Positions 6,066-19,512 of a stretch of DNA of 45,296 nucleotides are shown piece after piece. Under the pieces are notes generated by a model. It was not told where the DNA came from and searched no databases. It worked only from the letters and a program-made list of their open reading frames with translations. Source of the DNA: a virus (Duplodnaviria > Heunggongvirae > Uroviricota > Caudoviricetes); IMG/VR virus record IMGVR_UViG_2541047948_000009. One strand, 5' to 3'. Numbering within the stretch: position 1 is the first letter of the stretch; each line of letters begins with the position of its first letter. The position numbers and the translations under genes are program-made.

Positions 6066-6428
6066 TTAATGACCTGCTGCGCGGAGTTTTCCGTCAGGTT
6101 CACCGGCAAGAGTCAGTAATTGTCCCTGGTCTTCCTGCAGAATAGTCAGGCGACCACCGCGATTGACATACATCGGCGTTTCGGTGGTGTCTTCTTCGGA
6201 AATTTTCCCGCGGTTAGTTGGGCGAACATATGAGAGTTTGTGTTTGATTTTCACACGGTTCTCATCAAACGGTTCGATTTCCAGATTGAGTGAGACCTTC
6301 CCTTTGGTTTTCGTGTTCATCACACCGGAAGCGACTTCACTTAGAACTGCGCCGATTTTTGTTTCAAATACGCCGCCGTCCAGCTCCCCGATAAATGCCT
6401 GCACATCAGTACTGCGTTCACTAGCCAT
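6066..6428 (-). CDS. Hypothetical early protein (YfdP-like, 120 aa)
   Basis: Start at the internal ATG (6426-6428) preceded by GAGGAG with 7-nt spacing; the longer track ORF upstream is unlikely to be coding. Confidence 0.5.
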   Translation of the reverse strand: MASERSTDVQAFIGELDGGVFETKIGAVLSEVASGVMNTKTKGKVSLNLEIEPFDENRVKIKHKLSYVRPTNRGKISEEDTTETPMYVNRGGRLTILQEDQGQLLTLAGEPDGKLRAAGH

Positions 6429-6565
6429 TTTGCTGCTCCTCATCATATCGACCCTGCAATGTCGGTTAGTTTCTCCACAAAACAGAGAAGAACACCTGCG
6501 GTGGTAGCCGCCCGGATGGATTGGGTTATGAGCCCGTCGTCCGATGATGTTCTTCTCTGTTTTGT

Positions 6566-6625
6566 AAAAAGAGCGGTACCAGCCGGAAGCAAGTGTACAA
6601 ACTGGTACCGCCAAAGCAGTGGCTG
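6566..6625 (-). ncRNA. dicF: DicF-like sRNA ending in a strong intrinsic terminator (approximate ends)
   Basis: Minus strand reads ...CTTTGGCGGTACCAGTTTGTACACTTGCTTCCGGCTGGTACCGCTCTTTTT: 11-bp perfect stem (6571-6582 with 6602-6612), 19-nt loop, T-run; resembles the recalled DicF core UUUGGCGGUAUCAGUUU; lies in the ORF-poor leader of the leftward operon. Confidence 0.45.
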
Positions 6626-7047
6626 TTGTGGTGACCGGTGCTGATCTCCGGCTTGCGGTTATTTCAGACTCTCACGGGCATTTAATTGCCCCGCCGAACA
6701 GCTCTTTTCCGCAATAGCTGCAATGTCTTTCGCGCATCAGCCTGCGCATTCACCACAACGCTGAGAGCACTTAGCCAGTTACGGCACCACACTTTGTCGC
6801 GGTTCCATAAATGCCCTCATCGTTGCACCCTGGTCTCTTCCCAGGCGTCAAACCGAATCGCCACGCTGGTTAGGCGTCTTATCAGCATCATCATTGACTT
6901 GCACATTCCGGCTACCTGGTTTGTTTGCCCGAGCAAGGAGTGGATTGTCCCCTTTAACGTCCCCAGACCGCTAACGACGCATGTGCCATACGCCGTGTTA
7001 CAACCAAATTTTGTTAGTACCTTGTTTGTTTGTCTGGAAAGAAAGAT

Positions 7048-7096
7048 AAAATGAAGTTGCGCATTATGCAAGTGTTTTTTGTTGCGAGATATGCAA
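7048..7096. promoter_or_regulatory. Left operator/promoter region (OL/pL): two TTGC-N7-GCAA repressor-site candidates
   Basis: TTGCgcattatGCAA (7048-7062) and TTGCgagatatGCAA (7082-7096) match the palindromic half-site pattern also present in OR. Confidence 0.4.
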
Positions 7097-7106
7097 TTTA
7101 ATGGGT

Positions 7107-7131
7107 AATGAAAAGCCACCTTCGGGTGGCT
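7107..7131 (-). terminator. Intrinsic terminator downstream of cI (minus strand)
   Basis: Hairpin AGCCACC-ttcg-GGTGGCT (7114-7131) followed on the minus strand by a T-run. Confidence 0.5.
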
Positions 7132-7151
7132 AATTGATGAGGAGGTAAGGG

Positions 7152-7844
7152 TTAATTGTGTCGCTTAAGGGTTTGTGACTGGCTGATTAAGACCTTTCCA
7201 AAGACCATAAACCGGTGTTCATTTTCGCTGGTAATTCCCCATTCACGGTAAATCTGGTTATCAGAAATCACCAGTAGTTTGTCAGGTATCATTTGCAGTC
7301 GTTTGACATAAATTTTATCATCAAAACCAAATACATAGATACCATCTCCATCAAACTGATTGATACTGACATCAACGAAGATGAGATCTCCTGGCTCAAT
7401 GGTTGGACACATACTGTCCCCACGAACGTTGATAACTTTAATGTGATTGGCTGGCCGTCCGCCAAACATCGATACAGCATTATCAGTTCTGTATTCAATG
7501 GCATGAATCACATCAATGACATCACCGCCCTGGATAAGGCCATTTCCCGCACTGGCACTGACATCCAGCATTTCAATACGGAATACATCCTTCACCTGCG
7601 CAACATCCTCACTAATACTGTTTTTACATACAGTATTACTTTTGAAGTCTGAGGTAAAGAGATCAGCAATATCAACACCTAAGCTCCTGGCAATATTACT
7701 CAGGGCTTGTTCAGTGAATTGTTTCTGCTTACCTGTTTCCAGGCGTGAGATATTCGCCGCATCCACTCCTATTGCTTCAGCGAGATCGGCGATTTTCATG
7801 TTCTTCGCCTGGCGAAGTTGTCTGACTCGGTTTCCTATGTTCAT
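7152..7844 (-). CDS. cI: CI-type prophage repressor (N-terminal XRE HTH, C-terminal S24 LexA-like autopeptidase domain)
   Basis: 230 aa; HTH QLRQAKNMKIADLAEAIGVDAANISRLETGK; C-terminal GDSM (Ser) and VKRL (Lys) catalytic-dyad motifs; divergent from cro. Confidence 0.85.
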   Translation of the reverse strand: MNIGNRVRQLRQAKNMKIADLAEAIGVDAANISRLETGKQKQFTEQALSNIARSLGVDIADLFTSDFKSNTVCKNSISEDVAQVKDVFRIEMLDVSASAGNGLIQGGDVIDVIHAIEYRTDNAVSMFGGRPANHIKVINVRGDSMCPTIEPGDLIFVDVSINQFDGDGIYVFGFDDKIYVKRLQMIPDKLLVISDNQIYREWGITSENEHRFMVFGKVLISQSQTLKRHN

Positions 7845-7864
7845 GCGTTTATTACATTTCTTTA

Positions 7865-7927
7865 TTGCGCGTTAAGCAAATCAACTTGCGCAAAATATTT
7901 GCGTGAAATAATATGCTCATCACGCAA
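7865..7927. promoter_or_regulatory. Right operator/promoter region (OR, pRM/pR) between cI and cro
   Basis: TTGCgcgttaaGCAA (7865-7879), near-palindrome CGCAAAATATTTGCG (7889-7903), inverted repeat TTGCGTGA...TCACGCAA (7899-7927). Confidence 0.45.
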
Positions 7928-8378: not shown

Positions 8379-8747
8379 ATGATTTTACAGCGTGCTGCTG
8401 GCACTCACTACATTGCGGATGCTGTCGCACAGTCTGCTGGTGGGGTGTTTGTATCGCTTCCTGAAATTGAGGAAGTAGAGAACGCAGATATAAACCAGCG
8501 CCTGCTGGAAGTCATCGAACAGATCGGGAGTTACTCAAAGCAGATTCGTTCGGCAATCGAAGATGGGGTAGTGGAGCCACACGAGCAGACAGCAATTAAT
8601 GATGAATTGTATCTGTCAATTTCGAAGCTCCAGGAGCATGCGGCACTGGTCTACAAAATTTTCTGCGCTCCAGAAAAGAGTGACGCCCGCGAGTGTGCAG
8701 CTCCGGGCGTCGTGGCGTTTTGTGTCTGTGGAGAAACTAACGCATGA
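8379..8747 (+). CDS. CII-like regulatory protein (tentative)
   Basis: 122 aa ORF in the CII position after cro; family assignment is by position and loose resemblance only. Confidence 0.35.
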   Translation: MILQRAAGTHYIADAVAQSAGGVFVSLPEIEEVENADINQRLLEVIEQIGSYSKQIRSAIEDGVVEPHEQTAINDELYLSISKLQEHAALVYKIFCAPEKSDARECAAPGVVAFCVCGETNA

Positions 8748-9147
8748 ACAGTTTAACGGCAAATAACCGTTTGTCGCAACAGCTAGTGGTCAGTGTCGCT
8801 GCACACCTGTTGTTACGGCATGAATGCAGATTACCAAATCACCTGGCTGTAAGTAACCACAGAGAACTTTACCTGACTGTGGGGGGCGAGTTGTGCAGGA
8901 ACTTAACCGCTGGTTTCGTGACGGAAGAGGACTTTATGTTCATGTTATTCGTTGGGAGCCAGAAACACAGCGCGTTATCTATCTTCGCAAAGACTACCCG
9001 CATGAGTGCTTTAGTCCTTTGTGGAAATTCAGGCGTGATTTTGTTGAGTGTGAAGGACCACCAGCACATTGATTCTGCCATTCCGGGACGTTACACTGTT
9101 CAGGCACCTTATAAAGCGGGTGCCGGGCGTGGAAACCCGGAATTCAC

Positions 9148-9178
9148 CAAAGCGCACAACCGCGCTCTTGCGGTTTTT
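9148..9178 (+). terminator. Intrinsic terminator-like hairpin upstream of Rha
   Basis: AACCGC-gctctt-GCGGTT followed by TTTTTTTG. Confidence 0.4.
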
Positions 9179-9349
9179 TTGTGTCATGAGCAGCATTACG
9201 CCCAAATTATGGTGGGGCGTGCAGGGCCAACTTCGGTTGGGCCGGGTTCTTTGGTGACCGGTATTTCCACCCCTGTACGTCTCACCACCAATAAGGTCGT
9301 GGAAAGCCTTGGTGGTGAGTTATTAAAAATCACCAAAGAGGCTGCCATC

Positions 9350-9895
9350 ATGGCTACGATCCCAACCCTCACTCAACCTGAAATTGCCATCGTTGATGGT
9401 CAGGCTGTTACTTCATCCCTGGCTGTTGCCAACTTCTTCTCCAAACGTCATGACGATGTACTGAAAAAGATCCGCACGCTTGAATGTTCCGCATCATTCA
9501 CTGCCCGCAATTTTTCGGTGAGTGATTACACCGATTGCACAGGCCGCAAACTACCTTGCTATCAAATAACCCGCGACGGCTTTGCGTTTCTTGCTATGGG
9601 TTTCACGGGTAAACGTGCTGCCCAGTTCAAAGAGGCATACATCAATGCCTTTAACCAGATGGAGAAACAGCTTTCAAAGCCCGCTGTACCGAGCGACGTT
9701 GCACATAACGCCAGCGTTCTCTGTTCCTACATTTCATCAATTCATCAGGTCTGGCTGCAGCAGCTTTATCCTATGTTGGCAAAAGCCGAATCTCCGCTGG
9801 CTGTTAGCTTATATGACTATATTAATGATGCTTCGGCGCTGGCCTGCCTCATAAATTTGTCGCTGAACCCTTCAGAGGTAAGGGGGCGCAAATGA
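9350..9895 (+). CDS. Rha-family phage regulatory protein
   Basis: Start at the internal ATG 9350 (AAAGAGG RBS); N-terminus MATIPTLTQPEIAIVDGQAVTSSLAVANFFSKRHDDVLKKIRTL is typical of the Rha domain; the 5' extension of the track ORF looks non-coding. Confidence 0.7.
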   Translation: MATIPTLTQPEIAIVDGQAVTSSLAVANFFSKRHDDVLKKIRTLECSASFTARNFSVSDYTDCTGRKLPCYQITRDGFAFLAMGFTGKRAAQFKEAYINAFNQMEKQLSKPAVPSDVAHNASVLCSYISSIHQVWLQQLYPMLAKAESPLAVSLYDYINDASALACLINLSLNPSEVRGRK

Positions 9896-10116
9896 TCCGG
9901 AATATTTTCAAACGTTTTACCAATCAGACTTTCCGTTGTCCTCGTCCGGGTCAGTGGTACACCACGCCTGCAGGGCATGTTCTACGTGTTAGCCTGGTTG
10001 ACCGTGAATGTCAGAAGGTGATTTGTGAACCGCTGGGCCGTAATTACCGCGTCAGTATGCCGCTTATAGCCTTTTGCTCCGGAAAAAACATGAAGCATCT
10101 CGGAGGTGCAGCATGA
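9892..10116 (+). CDS. Hypothetical small protein, translationally coupled
   Basis: 74 aa; ATGA start/stop overlaps with both neighbours. Confidence 0.4.
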   Translation: MIRNIFKRFTNQTFRCPRPGQWYTTPAGHVLRVSLVDRECQKVICEPLGRNYRVSMPLIAFCSGKNMKHLGGAA

Positions 10117-10931
10117 GTATGGAGCTGATGGTTAAAGCGATGAAAATTCGAGTGGGTAATCCATTGCGAAAACTGGTTCTGATCAAGCTGGCTGATAATG
10201 CCAGCGATCAGGGTGAGTGCTGGCCCAGCTACCAGCATATTGCTGACCAGTGCGAGATTAGCAAACGTTCTGTGATGAATCATATTGCGGCCCTTTGTGA
10301 TTCCGGGCTGGTAAAAAAAGTCACCCGGAAAGGTGAAAAAGGTAACTCAAGTAATATCTATCTCCTTCATCTTGATGGTGCAGGAGATTCACTAGGGGGT
10401 AGTGCAAATAATTCACTATCTGGTGCAGCAAATTCACCAGGTAGTGCAGGAGTTGCACCAGGGGGTGGTGCAGGAGATTCACCCAGAACCAGTCACTCTT
10501 TTGAACCAGTCAAAGAACCAGTCAATGAACCAATAGCTGTTGGTGCATCTGCTGATGAGTCTGTGCGAGTTCGTTCAAACCGACCGGAATACTCTCCGGA
10601 GTTTGAGCAGGCATGGCTGGCATACCCCAAACGTGCTGGTGGCAATTCAAAATCTGCAGCCTTCAAAGCCTGGAAAGCCCGTTTGAATGAGGGGGTAAAA
10701 CCCGAAACCATGCTGGAAGGTGTGAAACGCTACGCGGGCTGGGTATCTGCGATGGGTAACAGCGGCACACAATTTGTGAAACAGGCTGTCACGTTCTTTG
10801 GTCCGGATCGTCATTTCGAAGAATCCTGGGAAGTTCCTGCGGTATCTGCAGCCAGACGCGAGGACCCGTACTTCAAAGCCAGTTACGACAACGTGGACTA
10901 CAGCCAGATCCCGGCAGGATTCAGGGGGTAA
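10113..10931 (+). CDS. Replication-associated HTH protein (O/DnaD-like N-terminal HTH, Gly/Ser-rich linker, conserved C-terminal domain)
   Basis: Start at ATG 10113 (GGAGG RBS); HTH region PSYQHIADQCEISKRSVMNHIAALCDSGLV; low-complexity linker; C-terminal EFEQAWLAYPKRAGGNSKSAAFKAWKARL. Confidence 0.5.
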   Translation: MSMELMVKAMKIRVGNPLRKLVLIKLADNASDQGECWPSYQHIADQCEISKRSVMNHIAALCDSGLVKKVTRKGEKGNSSNIYLLHLDGAGDSLGGSANNSLSGAANSPGSAGVAPGGGAGDSPRTSHSFEPVKEPVNEPIAVGASADESVRVRSNRPEYSPEFEQAWLAYPKRAGGNSKSAAFKAWKARLNEGVKPETMLEGVKRYAGWVSAMGNSGTQFVKQAVTFFGPDRHFEESWEVPAVSAARREDPYFKASYDNVDYSQIPAGFRG

Positions 10932-10933
10932 TC

Positions 10934-11422
10934 ATGAGTCTTTTGAATGAAGTTCAGAAATTCATTGAAGCCCATCCGGGGTGTACTTCCGGAGACATTG
11001 CAGATGCTTTTGCAGGTTACTCACGGCAGCGCGTTCTGCAGTCAGCAAGCAAGTTACGTCAGAGTGGGCGTGTGGCTCACCGTTGTGAAGGAGATACACG
11101 CAGACATTTCCCGCGCCTGACTGAGAGAGCGCAGGAGCCGGAACCACAACCAGTTCGTGAAACCAGACCTGTGCGCAATTTCTATGTCGGCACTAACGAT
11201 CCCCGGGTAATTTTGTGCCTGACCCGCCAGGCTGAAGAACTGGAGTCCAGGGGCTTATACCGTCGTGCTGCAACCGTGTGGATGGCGGCATTCCGTGAAA
11301 GCCACTCCCAGTCAGAACGAAACAATTTTCTGGCGCGCCGTGAGCGGTGCTTACGGAAAAGCAGCAAGCGCGCTGTATCGGGTGATGAGTGGTATCTGTC
11401 AGGGAATTACGTGTGGGCTTAA
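10934..11422 (+). CDS. Hypothetical regulator with possible PerC-like C-terminal region
   Basis: 162 aa; motif LESRGLYRRAATVWMAAFRE reminiscent of PerC-family activators (memory-based); coupled to neighbours. Confidence 0.35.
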   Translation: MSLLNEVQKFIEAHPGCTSGDIADAFAGYSRQRVLQSASKLRQSGRVAHRCEGDTRRHFPRLTERAQEPEPQPVRETRPVRNFYVGTNDPRVILCLTRQAEELESRGLYRRAATVWMAAFRESHSQSERNNFLARRERCLRKSSKRAVSGDEWYLSGNYVWA

Positions 11423-11748
11423 TGACGACGTTAACTCAATGCCAGCAGCAGGTGCTGGATATGCTGATTTCTTATCAGAAAGAACGTGGTTTCCCGCCAA
11501 CCAATCAGGAGGTGGCAGCCATGCTGGGATACCGTTCGGTGAATGCAGCGGTGGAGCATCTTCGCGCACTGGAGAAAAAAGGCGTCATCACGATAAAGCG
11601 TGGCGTGGCCCGGGGTATCACGCTTCATACCACAGTGAAGGACGACGACAGCGAGGCAGCCGGGATTATCCGTGCACTGCTTGCCGGTGAGGAAAACGCC
11701 AGACTGCGTGCAGCCCACTGGTTACATGAGAGGGGCCTGAAAGTATGA
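11422..11748 (+). CDS. LexA DNA-binding-domain-like protein lacking the peptidase domain
   Basis: Start at ATG 11422 (TAATG overlap); LTQCQQQVLDMLISYQKERGFPPTNQEVAAMLGYRSVNAAVEHLRALEKKGVI parallels the LexA N-terminal winged helix; no S24 domain follows. Confidence 0.6.
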   Translation: MTTLTQCQQQVLDMLISYQKERGFPPTNQEVAAMLGYRSVNAAVEHLRALEKKGVITIKRGVARGITLHTTVKDDDSEAAGIIRALLAGEENARLRAAHWLHERGLKV

Positions 11749-15342: not shown

Positions 15343-15642
15343 AAAAATTCCTTAATACTGATAACTGGGCGCACTATACACACGTTCCTGAAGAAAGCTA
15401 TAGTTTTTTGATGGGGTTGAAGATGGCTGGATGTCTAAAATAAACATTGCTTCATATGTTCAACTATGCGTTAATGATTGCGTCGGTTTGAAGAACAGAC
15501 GATATACGAAGTAGTTTACTAAAGCAGTTCTCATTTCAGGTGTTATTCACTTATTCCTTCTTTGAGTCTCTCCAATTAAGTACGAAGTCGTTTCTGTTAT
15601 ACAAGCCATTTATGCCGAAAGGCTCAAGTTAAGGAATGTAGA

Positions 15643-15858
15643 ATGTCAAATAAAATGACTGGTTTAGTAAAATGGTTTAACGCTGATAAAGGTTTTGGCT
15701 TTATTTCTCCTGTTGATGGTAGTAAAGATGTGTTTGTGCATTTTTCTGCGATTCAGAATGATAATTTTCGAACCTTATTTGAAGGTCAAAAGGTTACCTT
15801 CTCTGTAGAGAGTGGTGCTAAAGGTCCTGCAGCAGCAAATGTCATAATTACTGATTAA
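15643..15858 (+). CDS. cspB: Cold-shock protein CspB-like
   Basis: 71 aa; [38 protein letters not shown] with RNP1/RNP2 motifs; long AT-rich 5' UTR typical of csp genes. Confidence 0.85.
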
Positions 15859-16140
15859 AATTCATAGTTTGTCTGTATACGATAACGAAGAAGGCTGATG
15901 CCTGAGTGGAGATACAGACAGAGTGGTGAATATTGGATCTCTTTAATAAATAGTAAGGAGGTCCAATACATGAAACAATGGCCAGCATATTTGGCAATAA
16001 CTTAATCAGGAAAAGTATGCTAACCATTGTGGTGAAGTGCAGGTTTGCTGCATGAATAGTTTTACAGCAGAAGCTAACTGCTGGCATAGCAAAACAAAGT
16101 GCGTAAGTGGATGACTCCCACAAAAAGTACCACAATATTA

Positions 16141-16166
16141 AACCCGCTCAGGCGGGTTTTTTATTA
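16141..16166 (+). terminator. Intrinsic terminator
   Basis: AAACCCGC-tcag-GCGGGTTT followed by TTTTATT. Confidence 0.5.
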
Positions 16167-18731: not shown

Positions 18732-19091
18732 ATTAATATTAAATCGGATTATTTTTAGCGCTGAATGTGAAATTTAAATAAAAAGGACTCTTCCATGAGT
18801 CAAAATCCTTGAAATCTTAAGGGTAAGATAAAAGGTCATTAGACAGAATGACACGTTTTATTAATAAATAAAGCTATTGTTTCATTCGTGTGTTTTTCTT
18901 TACAAAAGTAATCCTTGCTATGGTTGGTTAATCATGCGTTAATGGTGTTCTGGTTTGTTACAAAATTATCTGAAGCAGTCATTGTTATAATTTTATTATT
19001 TGTACCTCTTGAGATTTCCTTGTTGGTTTTTCTCTCTGATATTTTTTTTCGGACCATTCTGCCCAAGGGCTAACTTCTTCAAAAGGTAATA

Positions 19092-19307
19092 ATGATGTCT
19101 AACAAAATGACTGGTTTAGTGAAATGGTTTAACCCTGAAAAAGGTTTTGGTTTCATCACGCCGAAAGATGGTAGCAAAGATGTGTTTGTGCATTTCTCAG
19201 CTATTCAGAGCAACGATTTCAAAACGTTAACTGAGAATCAGGAAGTCGAATTTGGTATTGAGAACGGACCTAAAGGCCCTGCAGCTGTTCATGTAGTGGC
19301 ACTTTGA
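19092..19307 (+). CDS. cspI: Cold-shock protein CspI-like
   Basis: [70 protein letters not shown] matches the recalled CspI sequence. Confidence 0.85.
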
Positions 19308-19512
19308 GGTAGAAAATATTACAAACCATATTCACTTTAGATGCCCGTGTTGCCATGGTTCTCAGTATAGAACATCATCTTTTGATGTTTCTGACAGAAA
19401 TCCTTTCGGGGCAAAATGTATCTTTTGTAAATCAATGATGATTACATTTGATAATATTTCACAATACTTAAATGTTAGCCATCTGTCGTTAGATTTAAGA
19501 AAGTGAAAATGA

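Follow-up and report, generated by a model that had tools for sequence, protein, structure and literature searches.

An untranslated early-left leader in an Escherichia coli prophage is a mosaic of conserved RNA modules, including a terminator-like hairpin weakly related to DicF

About 600 gene-free bases lie 3' of a putative early-left promoter in an E. coli prophage (minus strand, positions 6429-7047 of the 45,296-nt stretch of viral DNA that we analyzed, hereafter the window), and the question this locus raises is what such a leader is for. A sequence-only reading of the same DNA had described it as the ORF-poor leader of a repressor-controlled leftward operon carrying a DicF-like small RNA, and had missed the conserved RNA modules that make up most of the leader besides the hairpin we call HP1. 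An ORF check, a protein-family search and the annotation of UTI89 all agree that the minus strand holds no credible gene at 6429-7047, and the order of repressor, operators, leader and yfdPQR bears out the placement as an untranslated leader of that operon. In the 99.9% identical UTI89 prophage in RefSeq, nothing is annotated between the repressor and yfdP, whose start is the same; the downstream genes are yfdP-yfdQ-yfdR. In NC_007946.1, HP1 corresponds to 4,994,484-4,994,533 and B to 4,994,541-4,994,688 on the minus strand, and the repressor is WP_001311077.1. Between the promoter and these genes, conserved RNA modules follow one another in the order A, clamp, B, HP1, HP2 and HP3, after which comes yfdP. 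The features are as follows, from 5' to 3' along the transcript.

7152-7844, minus strand: cI-like repressor gene, 5' of the leader
7114-7131, minus strand: terminator hairpin of the repressor gene (AGCCACCCGAAGGTGGCT, then TTTCATT; terminator scan), taken as the upstream boundary
7081-7096 and 7056-7071, minus strand: OL operator-like 16-mers (GTTGCGAGATATGCAA and GTTGCGCATTATGCAA, respectively) of one repeat family
7066-7071 and 7043-7048, minus strand: -35 (TTGCAT) and -10 (TATCTT) of the putative early-left promoter, with 17-nt spacing
6829-7015, minus strand: module A, a conserved structured non-coding RNA (homology and RNAalifold)
6756-6825, minus strand: S1 clamp helix, in which a consensus fold predicts that CAACGAUGAGGGCAUUU (6809-6825) pairs with AAGUGCUCUCAGCGUUG (6756-6772), enclosing a variable insert
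6623-6770, minus strand: element B, a three-way junction with kissing loops (103.8 bits with R1, a model built from type-1 B elements)
6751-6759 and 6625-6633, minus strand: outer helix of B (GUUGUGGUG/CACCACAAC)
6732-6747 and 6634-6652, minus strand: hairpins a and b of B, with complementary loops and a variable insert between them
6672-6749, minus strand: 25-codon ORF MRRLMRERHCSYCGKELFGGAIKCP, counted from the first ATG (earlier given as 21 codons) and judged not coding
6566-6615, minus strand: HP1, a DicF-family terminator hairpin (arms 6602-6612 and 6572-6582; T5 at 6566-6570)
6477-6565, minus strand: HP2, a hairpin of 89 nt whose lower stem is perfect over 20 bp (6546-6565/6477-6496), predicted energy -42.2 kcal/mol
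6449-6464, minus strand: HP3, a small hairpin (CGAC...GUCG) just 5' of the Shine-Dalgarno sequence
6066-6441, minus strand: yfdP, including GAGGAG at 6436-6441, with its ATG at 6428; the first annotated leftward gene (RefSeq UTI89 WP_000135682.1)

The rightward operator region at 7864-7879 carries the same 16-mer repeat family as the OL pair. The -35 and -10 hexamers were read by eye, the consensus promoter scan not having listed the pair, and their sequence suggests promoter activity at 7043-7071.

Our preferred reading, to which we give about an even chance of being right, is that the leader is a non-coding modular RNA cassette with a leaky terminator or attenuator, yielding an RNA of the DicF/STnc100 class, between the early-left promoter and yfdP. 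Region 6420-6660 folds much more strongly than its shuffles (z = -5.4). Across homologues fetched in both collection scans by exact words of 21-26 nt, a procedure that inflates conservation and limits covariation, HP1, HP2 and HP3 jointly keep 98.5% of cells paired, compared with 37-51% when partners are slid, and 6 pairs have changed on both sides, a count matched by 0/500 shuffles. Taken singly, HP2 has 99.9% of cells paired over 77 distinct homologues, among which one pair varies between A-U, G-U and G-C and the lower stem has 16 of its 20 pairs invariant; HP3 shows both-side changes in 3 of its 4 pairs and occurs in an alternative version, GCCCC...GGGGC; and HP1 diverges in its loops but changes its stem in compensatory fashion, with A-U replaced by G-C in L067 and L103. 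HP1 and HP2 together are present in 2,490 of 5,426 complete E. coli genomes, where they are never annotated as RNA and where the e14 copy is annotated as the protein gene "ymfH".

The 5' half of the leader is likewise shared among phages. Stretches 78-89% identical to module A lie in unannotated intergenic DNA of P1, Uetakeviruses and Stx2c phages, and an RNAalifold consensus of 5 sequences retains pairing through changes on both sides at 9 of 50 pairs; module A has no match in Rfam. The P1 copy sits downstream of a tRNA-Met. In HK620, Klebsiella phages and many IMG/VR contigs, B likewise comes after this S1 clamp (ACAACAGGUAAGAGCAYU/AGUGCUCUUUCCGUUG), which in those copies often encloses a T-arm-like hairpin.

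Element B occurs in 147 phage records of many genera, with a core of 26 nt that is identical across unrelated phage groups. In B, 94.9% of cells are paired, against 23-55% with partners slid, and hairpin b has all of its cells (100%) paired, 2 of its pairs being compensatory. Covariation of the kissing loop is seen in L232 and L233, where loop a changes from GGCUGA to GGCCGA and loop b from UCAGC to UCGGC in both of the variants found; at a second kissing-loop position (C to D in loop a), the IMG/VR scan returned no variants. R1 scores the P1 copy at 67 bits, and B2-type elements in SfIV, e14 and the Qin dicF-dicB spacer at 31-37 bits (E about 1e-5, the E-values of our custom models R1 and R2 being rough). 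A hairpin plus T-run follows within 170 nt in 51 of 98 distinct B contexts. In L194, L197 and L207, which belong to other immunity types, a promoter-like TTGACA-N18-TACATT lies about 20 nt before B and HP1 comes after it, so that B plus HP1 is the core that leaders of this kind conserve. Other copies of B follow stop codons at the ends of operons, neighbor tRNAs or lie in the late leader of HK620. A full-text literature search for the B core sequence found nothing, and one for "ymfH" with "sRNA" returned only an unrelated Bacillus gene.

The likeness to DicF that had first drawn attention to this leader holds at the level of the core: TTTGGCGGTAcCAGTTT (6599-6615) is identical to TTTGGCGGTAtCAGTTT of K-12 dicF at 16 of 17 positions, and at up to 2 mismatches the DicF 17-mer has one match in the window, where shuffles give 0.03. 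The hairpin and T-run described earlier are likewise present, although the stem given as 11 perfect base pairs consists of 10 Watson-Crick pairs and one G-U pair; it encloses a 19-nt loop, with a predicted energy of -21.2 kcal/mol. The Rfam search that the earlier reading had itself proposed went the other way: the DicF model RF00039 has no match in the leader at E<=10, and HP1 fails its gathering threshold (48 bits), while K-12 dicF as a positive control scores 76.7 bits. Rfam was searched with the whole window at gathering thresholds and, at E<=10, with the leader at 6300-7250 (951 nt) and with 6555-6790 (236 nt); at E<=10 the leader returned no DicF, STnc100, tRNA or other credible family, only miRNA and snoRNA matches at chance level. 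A link nonetheless runs through e14, whose copy of the HP1 element scores 28.5 bits (E 0.012) with RF00039. In the other direction, R2, a model of HP1-type hairpins from which DicF was left out, gives HP1 95.5 bits and finds relatives in e14, in a Uetakevirus, in other contigs and in K-12 dicF, which is precisely what it picks out of the Qin locus (18.9 bits, E 0.004). These reciprocal matches, sub-threshold and by way of the e14 intermediate, point weakly to HP1 being related to DicF.

On the preferred reading, transcription from about 7036 would produce a folded chain of A, the S1 clamp and B, ending at HP1 as an intrinsic terminator. HP1 would act as an attenuator because its 11-pair stem closes a large 19-nt loop and is followed by only five U; so large a loop and so short a U-run may, on the other hand, make it a poor terminator. 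Transcripts that stop there would be RNAs of about 470 nt, which would be trimmed to a B+HP1 species of about 205 nt and perhaps to an HP1 species of about 55 nt. In read-through transcripts, RNase III would cut the 20-bp duplex of HP2, its presumed substrate, freeing the yfdP-yfdQ-yfdR mRNA. The released RNA would probably bind Hfq and act in trans, its variable C/U-rich HP1 loop (here CUUGCUUCC) meeting other RNAs and a target other than ftsZ.

A rather unlikely alternative is that the leader works in cis alone, as a structured spacer that shields the untranslated stretch from Rho and RNases, with HP1 a mere terminator or attenuator and no functional RNA released. The folds, their conservation and the shape of the terminator are all compatible with this account, as is the fact that no target was found and that complementarity to ftsZ is absent. 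However, the identity of the 26-nt B core in unrelated phage groups suggests a partner that recognizes its sequence and not just a generic structure; the HP1 stems are kept while the loops diversify, as expected of a seed region; and the relatives (DicF, STnc100 and PasD) are stable RNAs that are bound by Hfq and have targets.

It is improbable, in our estimate, that B is instead a put-like processive antiterminator, which would modify RNA polymerase in cis for read-through of HP1 into yfdP and on to the integration genes, replacing N. Such a role would suit the position of B at or near the start of the early-left transcript in at least two immunity types, with a terminator directly after it, in a leftward operon that has no N-like gene. 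HK022 has putL in the same placement, just 3' of its early-left promoter, as a structured cis-acting RNA 5' of terminators and with no evident N gene (PMC9378689). The folds differ, however, since put RNA is made up of two neighboring stem-loops, about 70 nt, and includes a triplex (PMC9378689) and B is a closed three-way junction. Copies of B are also found far from early promoters, at operon ends, beside tRNAs and in the late leader of HK620, for which Q already supplies antitermination, and among the relatives, STnc100 and PasD build up as terminated RNAs. Moreover, R1 finds no match in HK022 at 22-32 kb (L229 and L230). That region presumably contains putL and putR, although the record carries no annotation of them.

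It is very improbable that the element at 6566-6625 is orthologous to DicF and that its RNA pairs at the ribosome-binding site of ftsZ and stops division. The 16/17 core identity, an operon position the same as that of dicF and the weak reciprocal model matches would fit such an orthologue, which RF00039 failed to recognize at E<=10. DicF pairs with the ftsZ ribosome-binding site through its 3' half (PMC5069750), and this half (ACUCCGUGACUGCUCUGCCGCC) is replaced in HP1. The ftsZ inhibition proposed earlier was not borne out, and no block to cell division is indicated. In a 24-nt local scan, used because full-length duplex folding failed to discriminate even DicF, the best HP1-ftsZ duplex reached -16.2 kcal/mol (z = +1.07, worse than the shuffle mean) against -22.9 kcal/mol for DicF at ftsZ -29..-7, in a low-power test where DicF itself has z = -0.93. 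A filamentation screen of a UTI89 expression library recovered dicB/dicF and a rightward region of the prophage studied here, with no leader fragment listed, which fits a lack of ftsZ targeting and is silent on other functions.

Finally, a coding leader, be it the decayed remnant of a ymfH-like gene, a stretch that lengthens yfdP at its N terminus or a source of small peptides such as ydfA/B/C, is hardly credible: although the same module is annotated as protein in e14 (ymfH, 103 aa) and SfIV (gp34), and an uninterrupted 182-aa frame leads from 6614 into yfdP, YmfH and every leader ORF lack a protein-family match, substitutions keep helices rather than codons, the e14 and SfIV copies differ by 1-nt indels, one RefSeq record labels a ymfH-type gene as frameshifted, and two RNA models score a B2 element whose 5' strand is the start of "ymfH" (GTGGTGAATGCG). 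The searches against Pfam and NCBIfam covered a 100-aa GTG ORF (6817-7119) that crosses the terminator and operators, the 182-aa TTG ORF (6066-6614) that extends yfdP in frame across the hairpins, a 122-aa plus-strand ORF and e14 YmfH. A short peptide frame had also been suggested, and an ORF does exist at 6672-6749, but it is not conserved as coding sequence: most homologous copies have Arg for Cys24, 2 have a stop in place of Tyr12 and 1 has Phe for Cys10. Its first third is the invariant hairpin a, after which other phages carry unrelated inserts, and its zinc-ribbon matches (E 0.01) are below the cut-off.

Nearly half of complete E. coli genomes thus carry the HP1+HP2 module unannotated or called protein, as in e14 ymfH and SfIV gp34, and a corrected annotation changes how prophage early-left operons are read. 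DicF appears to belong, as a single branch, to a broader family of phage RNAs, terminator hairpins with conserved stems and diversified loops, and joining the DicF/HP1 family to STnc100/PasD-type elements offers a testable route by which prophage sRNAs may gain new targets. With its invariant 26-nt core, covarying kissing loop and interchange with tRNA across very different phage families, B is a candidate host-factor-binding RNA, the factor being RNase P, Hfq, RNA polymerase or a tRNA enzyme.

Among known systems, the C4 RNAs of P1 and P7 and the CI immunity RNA of P4 are processed from leaders by RNase P. The leader described here may be analogous, as a source of small phage RNAs cut from untranslated sequence by tRNA-processing enzymes, although neither B nor HP1 has any similarity to them. 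A C4 RNA is present elsewhere in the window, at 9205-9292.

In the Uetakevirus L003, a tRNA-Arg occupies exactly the B slot of the same cassette, after the junction CAGCGUU|GUGG; beyond it, the trailer hairpin is the same (AAUCACG..GGACCGUGAU) and the terminator is of the HP1 type. Modeled as a closed multi-arm fold whose first and last arm loops are in contact, B resembles a tRNA in its 7-bp outer helix, 2 nt, arm of 4-5 bp, variable arm and 5-bp arm, the last stacked directly on the 3' strand of the closing helix, and the loop-loop contact may be analogous to the tRNA elbow. Unlike in tRNA, this contact is Watson-Crick rather than the canonical D-loop/T-loop interaction, and there is no CCA end, the sequence running on after CACCAC as AAC; the tRNA models RF00005 and ARAGORN do not match B, ARAGORN finds no tRNA or tmRNA in the whole window, and a tRNA lies within 300 nt in only 8 of 98 B contexts. 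Tentatively, and with some doubt, B can be viewed as a tRNA-shaped mimic with a Watson-Crick kissing-loop "elbow", occupying the tRNA slot of a mobile tRNA-gene-like cassette that spread across unrelated enterobacterial phages; HP1-type RNAs, DicF included, would then be 3'-trailer products freed by tRNA-processing enzymes, with variable loops retargeted to different host mRNAs. The cassette so conceived runs from leader A and the S1 clamp through tRNA or B to trailer and HP1 terminator, and its carriers would include P1, T1-like, Vi01-like, N4-like, P22-like and lambdoid phages. A tRNA gene with a functional 3' trailer was reportedly described by Lalaouna et al. in 2015 (the 3'ETS-leuZ type).

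Compared with DicF, HP1 has a fully paired stem (GGUACCAG/CUGGUACC) where DicF has an internal loop, lacks the DicF 5' seed UUUCUGGUGA as well as the ftsZ-pairing 3' half, and sits between B before it and HP2 after it, whereas in Qin a B2 element comes after dicF. DicF also exists as a 190-nt species, and a reading of it as B plus DicF was dropped when a filter-off R1 search upstream of Qin dicF gave only 3 bits; with no B there, the parallel is one of size and position only. The likenesses are that both share UUUGGCGGUAyCAGUUU as the 5' arm of a GGCGG...CCGCC terminator that carries the UUUGGCGGUAUCAGUUU core and is followed by U5, have a C/U-rich apical region and a long duplex nearby as a possible RNase III site, and lie in a repressor-controlled early-left operon of a lambdoid prophage with further genes downstream, DicF arising from a repressor-controlled polycistronic transcript (10.1101/2023.04.14.536235).

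STnc100 and PasD are Hfq-bound prophage sRNAs that end in terminators (Zhu, Shabalina and Storz 2026, preprint 10.64898/2026.05.13.724894; Pearl Mizrahi et al. 2021, PMC8550237), and their Rfam model RF02076 (gathering threshold 47 bits) matches neither the window nor the type-1 B of HK620 and Klebsiella phages. Unlike in B2 sequences, where none was seen, type-1 B has a GCUGA/UCAGC kissing loop, and the window copy lies in an early-left leader rather than between Q and the lysis genes, with the HK620 copy in a late leader. The Pas sRNAs were considered as counterparts of this leader and rejected, PasB being embedded in the structural genes and PasA/C/D located close to Q, holin and RusA. RF02076 nevertheless matches the same B2 loci as R1, at 29-38 bits, and sequence comparison suggests that B is distantly related to STnc100/PasD, with which it shares a prophage location, a total length of about 200 nt and the order UGGUGAAU, hairpin, variable region, hairpin and CACCA, then a terminator.

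The leader (minus strand, 6429-7047) belongs to a prophage that Escherichia coli UTI89, APEC O1 and S88 carry at 99.9% identity over the 751 bases around it, and RefSeq places no annotation between the repressor gene and yfdP. The features discussed here are as follows:

7152-7844, minus strand: cI-like XRE/S24 repressor gene (RefSeq annotation)
7114-7131: terminator hairpin at the end of the repressor gene (terminator scan)
7056-7071 and 7081-7096: two 16-mers of one repeat family, recurring at 7864-7879 in the rightward control region
7066-7071 and 7043-7048: -35 (TTGCAT) and -10 (TATCTT) with 17 nt spacing, overlapping the first 16-mer operator
6829-7015, minus strand: module A, conserved, upstream of B
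6809-6825 with 6756-6772, minus strand: clamp helix, conserved, upstream of B
6623-6770, minus strand: element B, defined by comparing phage copies of its core, with outer helix GUUGUGGUG/CACCACAAC, hairpin a, GCGCA(GGCUGA)UGCGC, a variable insert, then hairpin b, GCCGG(AGAUCAGCA)CCGGU
6602-6612 with 6572-6582: arms of hairpin HP1, with a T5 run at 6566-6570
6428, minus strand: ATG of yfdP, the first gene after the leader, with yfdQ and yfdR next (RefSeq annotation)
6817-7119: 100-aa GTG frame crossing the terminator and operators
6066-6614: 182-aa TTG frame, an upstream extension of yfdP across two strong hairpins

Because the rightward control region carries a repeat of the same kind, the 16-mers look operator-like, and together with the overlapping -35/-10 pair, a putative early-left promoter, they make "OL/pL region", the label used in the sequence-only reading, a reasonable one. 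That reading also saw no credible long minus-strand ORF in the leader, and we find no credible ORF there: the candidate frames either cross the terminator and operators or extend yfdP, and Pfam and NCBIfam returned nothing for the 100-aa and 182-aa frames, a plus-strand 122-aa frame or e14 YmfH. The short peptide it proposed did not survive comparison, as it lies inside B, has hairpin a as its first third, and keeps its residues poorly in homologues (Cys24 becomes mostly Arg, Tyr12 a stop in two, Cys10 Phe in one). The annotated e14 ymfH (b1142; L005 2363-2674) and the 5' part of SfIV gp34 (L006 1868-2185) overlie an element of the B2 type (the STnc100-positive loci of Qin, SfIV and e14) followed by HP1 and the long hairpin HP2. 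Single-base indels separate e14 and SfIV within "ymfH", and one RefSeq record calls it a frameshifted gene, which argues against coding; given these frame-breaking indels and the lack of a family match, both annotations are probably misannotated RNA.

The terminator hairpin described earlier in the leader is real, with a 19-nt loop and a predicted energy of -21.2 kcal/mol; its supposedly perfect 11-bp stem does have 11 pairs, but ten are Watson-Crick and one is G-U. The 5' arm and flanks of HP1 (TTTGGCGGTACCAGTTT) resemble their K-12 dicF counterpart (TTTGGCGGTATCAGTTT), a match of a quality expected 0.03 times per window, and the structure line of the Rfam model match places the same bases of DicF likewise in the terminator 5' arm. 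The Infernal check named in the sequence-only reading was negative, with no match to the Rfam DicF model at E<=10 in either a 951-base or a 236-base search of the leader, while the positive control, K-12 dicF, scored 76.7 bits. DicF uses its 3' part to pair with the ribosome-binding site of ftsZ (PMC5069750), and this pairing segment (ACUCCGUGACUGCUCUGCC) is absent from the window element. In a 24-nt local scan the window element reached -16.2 kcal/mol against ftsZ, worse than its own-shuffle mean, the scan having low power since DicF itself reaches just z = -0.93 with its best duplex (-22.9 kcal/mol, ftsZ -29..-7). A filamentation screen of a UTI89 expression library recovered dicB/dicF and a region of this same prophage, window 9155-11679, and the leader was not among the recovered fragments (PMC6206680). 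With the model negative, the ftsZ segment absent and the screen lacking the leader, neither DicF-family membership nor DicF function is supported.

The filamentation-causing region (NC_007946.1 4,997,073-4,999,597) lies in the rightward early region and holds a Rha C-terminus and HTH, PerC-like and methyltransferase genes; a division inhibitor of this prophage probably sits there rather than in the leader. IsrK (67 bits, 9104-9180, plus strand) and a C4 antisense RNA (83.6 bits, 9205-9292, plus strand) both fall within the 383-aa "Rha family" ORF annotated in UTI89 (8744-9895, plus strand), of which the first ~200 codons probably make up an immI-like, non-coding stretch, the true start lying near MATIPTLTQ.

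The anatomy of the leader and its relatedness to other loci are what the analysis shows. DicF itself looks like one branch of a broader hairpin family in these models, because R2, our model built from ten HP1-type hairpins with DicF left out, matches precisely dicF when run on the Qin locus (1883-1944; score 18.9 bits, E 0.004) and the Rfam DicF model in turn matches the e14 HP1 copy (28.5 bits, E 0.012), each match being marginal singly and own-model E-values rough, and because HP1-type copies share kept sequence and compensatory stems. R2 scores of 24-35 bits also mark HP1-type terminators in a Uetakevirus and in several IMG/VR contigs; all these copies keep UUGGCGGU...ACCGCCCUUUUUACA, their stems change compensatorily (GGUACC/GGUACC to GGUGCC/GGCACC or GGUGAUGG/CUAUCACC), and their apical C/U-rich loops vary freely.

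HP1, HP2 and the small hairpin HP3 form a module also found upstream of xisE in e14 (there annotated as the protein gene ymfH) and of yfdP in SfIV. The alignment of 77 distinct homologues has 98.5% of its cells paired vs. 37-51% with partners slid, and six pairs have both sides changed, a count reached in 0 of 500 shuffles; the homologues were fetched by exact words, which biases conservation measures. The HP2 lower stem runs 20 bp uninterrupted (predicted energy -42.2 kcal/mol), and since 16 of these pairs never vary, its support is conservation, not covariation. The 161-nt HP1+HP2 stretch occurs in 2,490 of 5,426 complete E. coli genomes, in up to five copies each, with either no annotation or that of a hypothetical protein.

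The leader proved to be a mosaic when searched against phage and E. coli collections. A 40-nt core (GTGGTGAATGCGCAGGCTGATGCGCG and flanks) exceeds 90% identity among very different phages, its 147 records, nearly all unannotated, including HK620 and T1-like, Vi01-like and N4-like phages of Klebsiella, Escherichia, Salmonella, Erwinia and Cronobacter. Over 35 diverse copies, the fold of B pairs 94.9% of cells vs. 23-55% slid, with hairpin b paired in every copy through C-G to A-U and G-C to A-U changes. The loops of hairpins a and b are complementary (GCUGA/UCAGC), and this kissing pair covaries: in both IMG/VR variants found, whose inserts are unrelated and whose hairpin-b stems differ, loop a becomes GGCCGA with loop b UCGGC. 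Both hairpins also change compensatorily in the P1 copy, and in the clamp and module A upstream of B 9 of 50 predicted pairs are compensatory (five sequences: P1, a Uetakevirus and IMG/VR contigs).

The possibility that B is a put RNA was rejected because R1, our model from type-1 (window-like) B elements, has no match in the HK022 early region. The Rfam STnc100 model (RF02076) gave significant but sub-threshold scores at the Qin dicF-dicB spacer (34.4 bits), SfIV (38.4), P1 (37.8) and e14 (29.2), and no match on the window, HK620 or Klebsiella phages. R1 scores 103.8 bits on the window, 67 bits on P1 and 31-37 bits on the STnc100-positive loci (E about 1e-5, own-model E-values being approximate); since it thus reaches loci that RF02076 also finds while RF02076 misses the window, B is, by these models, a distinct subtype within an STnc100-like superfamily. 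R1 found no B element upstream of dicF; the Qin spacer (L002 1944-2084), unannotated in K-12, is itself of B2/STnc100 type (R1 33.1 bits). A second, weak B/STnc100-like element (16015-16165, plus strand; R1 22 bits, E 0.0026), followed by a clean terminator (AAACCCGCTCAGGCGGGTTTTTT), lies just 3' of a cspA-like unit of the prophage. The cspA thermoregulator 5' UTR is matched at full length twice (15482-15921, 156.5 bits, and 18937-19353, 110.1 bits, both plus strand), indicating that the prophage has two cold-shock-protein genes with RNA thermosensors.

Genomic context also connects B with tRNAs. A hairpin and T-run follow within 170 nt in 51 of 98 distinct B contexts; a tRNA lies within 300 nt in just 8 of the 98, and widening the distance to 600 nt gives 14 tRNAs, all on the strand of their B element. 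The cassette of a Uetakevirus (L003) runs from module A through clamp, tRNA-Arg and trailer hairpin (AAUCACG..GGACCGUGAU) to an HP1-type terminator, with the tRNA-Arg beginning at the exact junction where the window B begins (CAGCGUU|GUGG), and two contigs (L181, L185) carry B and then that same trailer and terminator. B has proportions similar to a tRNA, its kissing loop placed where the elbow would be, but lacks a CCA end, and Rfam and ARAGORN searches of the window detected it with no tRNA model. We infer that B may mimic a tRNA and that HP1 may be a 3'-trailer RNA. Three contigs of another immunity type (L194, L197, L207) have a strong promoter-like site ~20 nt before B, and because they keep B and then HP1 and HP2, B+HP1 is the part that such leaders have in common.

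In the P1 tRNA region (L004 466-2700), the order is tRNA-Asn, tRNA-Thr, B (924-1038), a B2/STnc100-like element (1185-1322), an SPFH gene, tRNA-Met, and module A directly upstream of ban; an opposite-strand "hypothetical protein" CDS (968-1297) overlaps both elements. Upstream of B, HK620 (L131 ~370-890) and Klebsiella phage 6991 (L129 ~400-900) carry a tmRNA-like tag frame (GCAAACGAAGAAATGTATCTGGCCGTAGCTTAA, ANEEMYLAVA*), with weak Rfam tmRNA_permuted matches (25 and 20 bits, respectively) and, in phage 6991, a T-arm and ...GGGAACCA 3' of B. ARAGORN called no tmRNA in these regions, which may encode a phage tmRNA-like RNA.

[quoted passage not shown] By analogy, derepression of the early-left promoter would yield a structured RNA mostly ending at HP1; trimming would leave B+HP1 (about 205 nt) and perhaps also HP1 alone, and cutting of HP2 in read-through transcripts would release yfdP mRNA. 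Termination, processing, Hfq binding and targets of the leader RNA are thus inferred. STnc100 and PasD are Hfq-associated, terminator-ended sRNAs of prophages, no longer than about 240 nt and located near Q and lysis genes (10.64898/2026.05.13.724894; PMC8550237), and B of HK620, like them, sits in the late leader, between qut and tQ. Collectively, what the sequence-only reading observed holds and its interpretation holds in part: HP1 is related to DicF by descent and architecture, is no DicF member by model and gives no sign of ftsZ targeting, and the leader element is a variant of two known kinds, DicF and STnc100/PasD, within a widespread, unannotated modular cassette.
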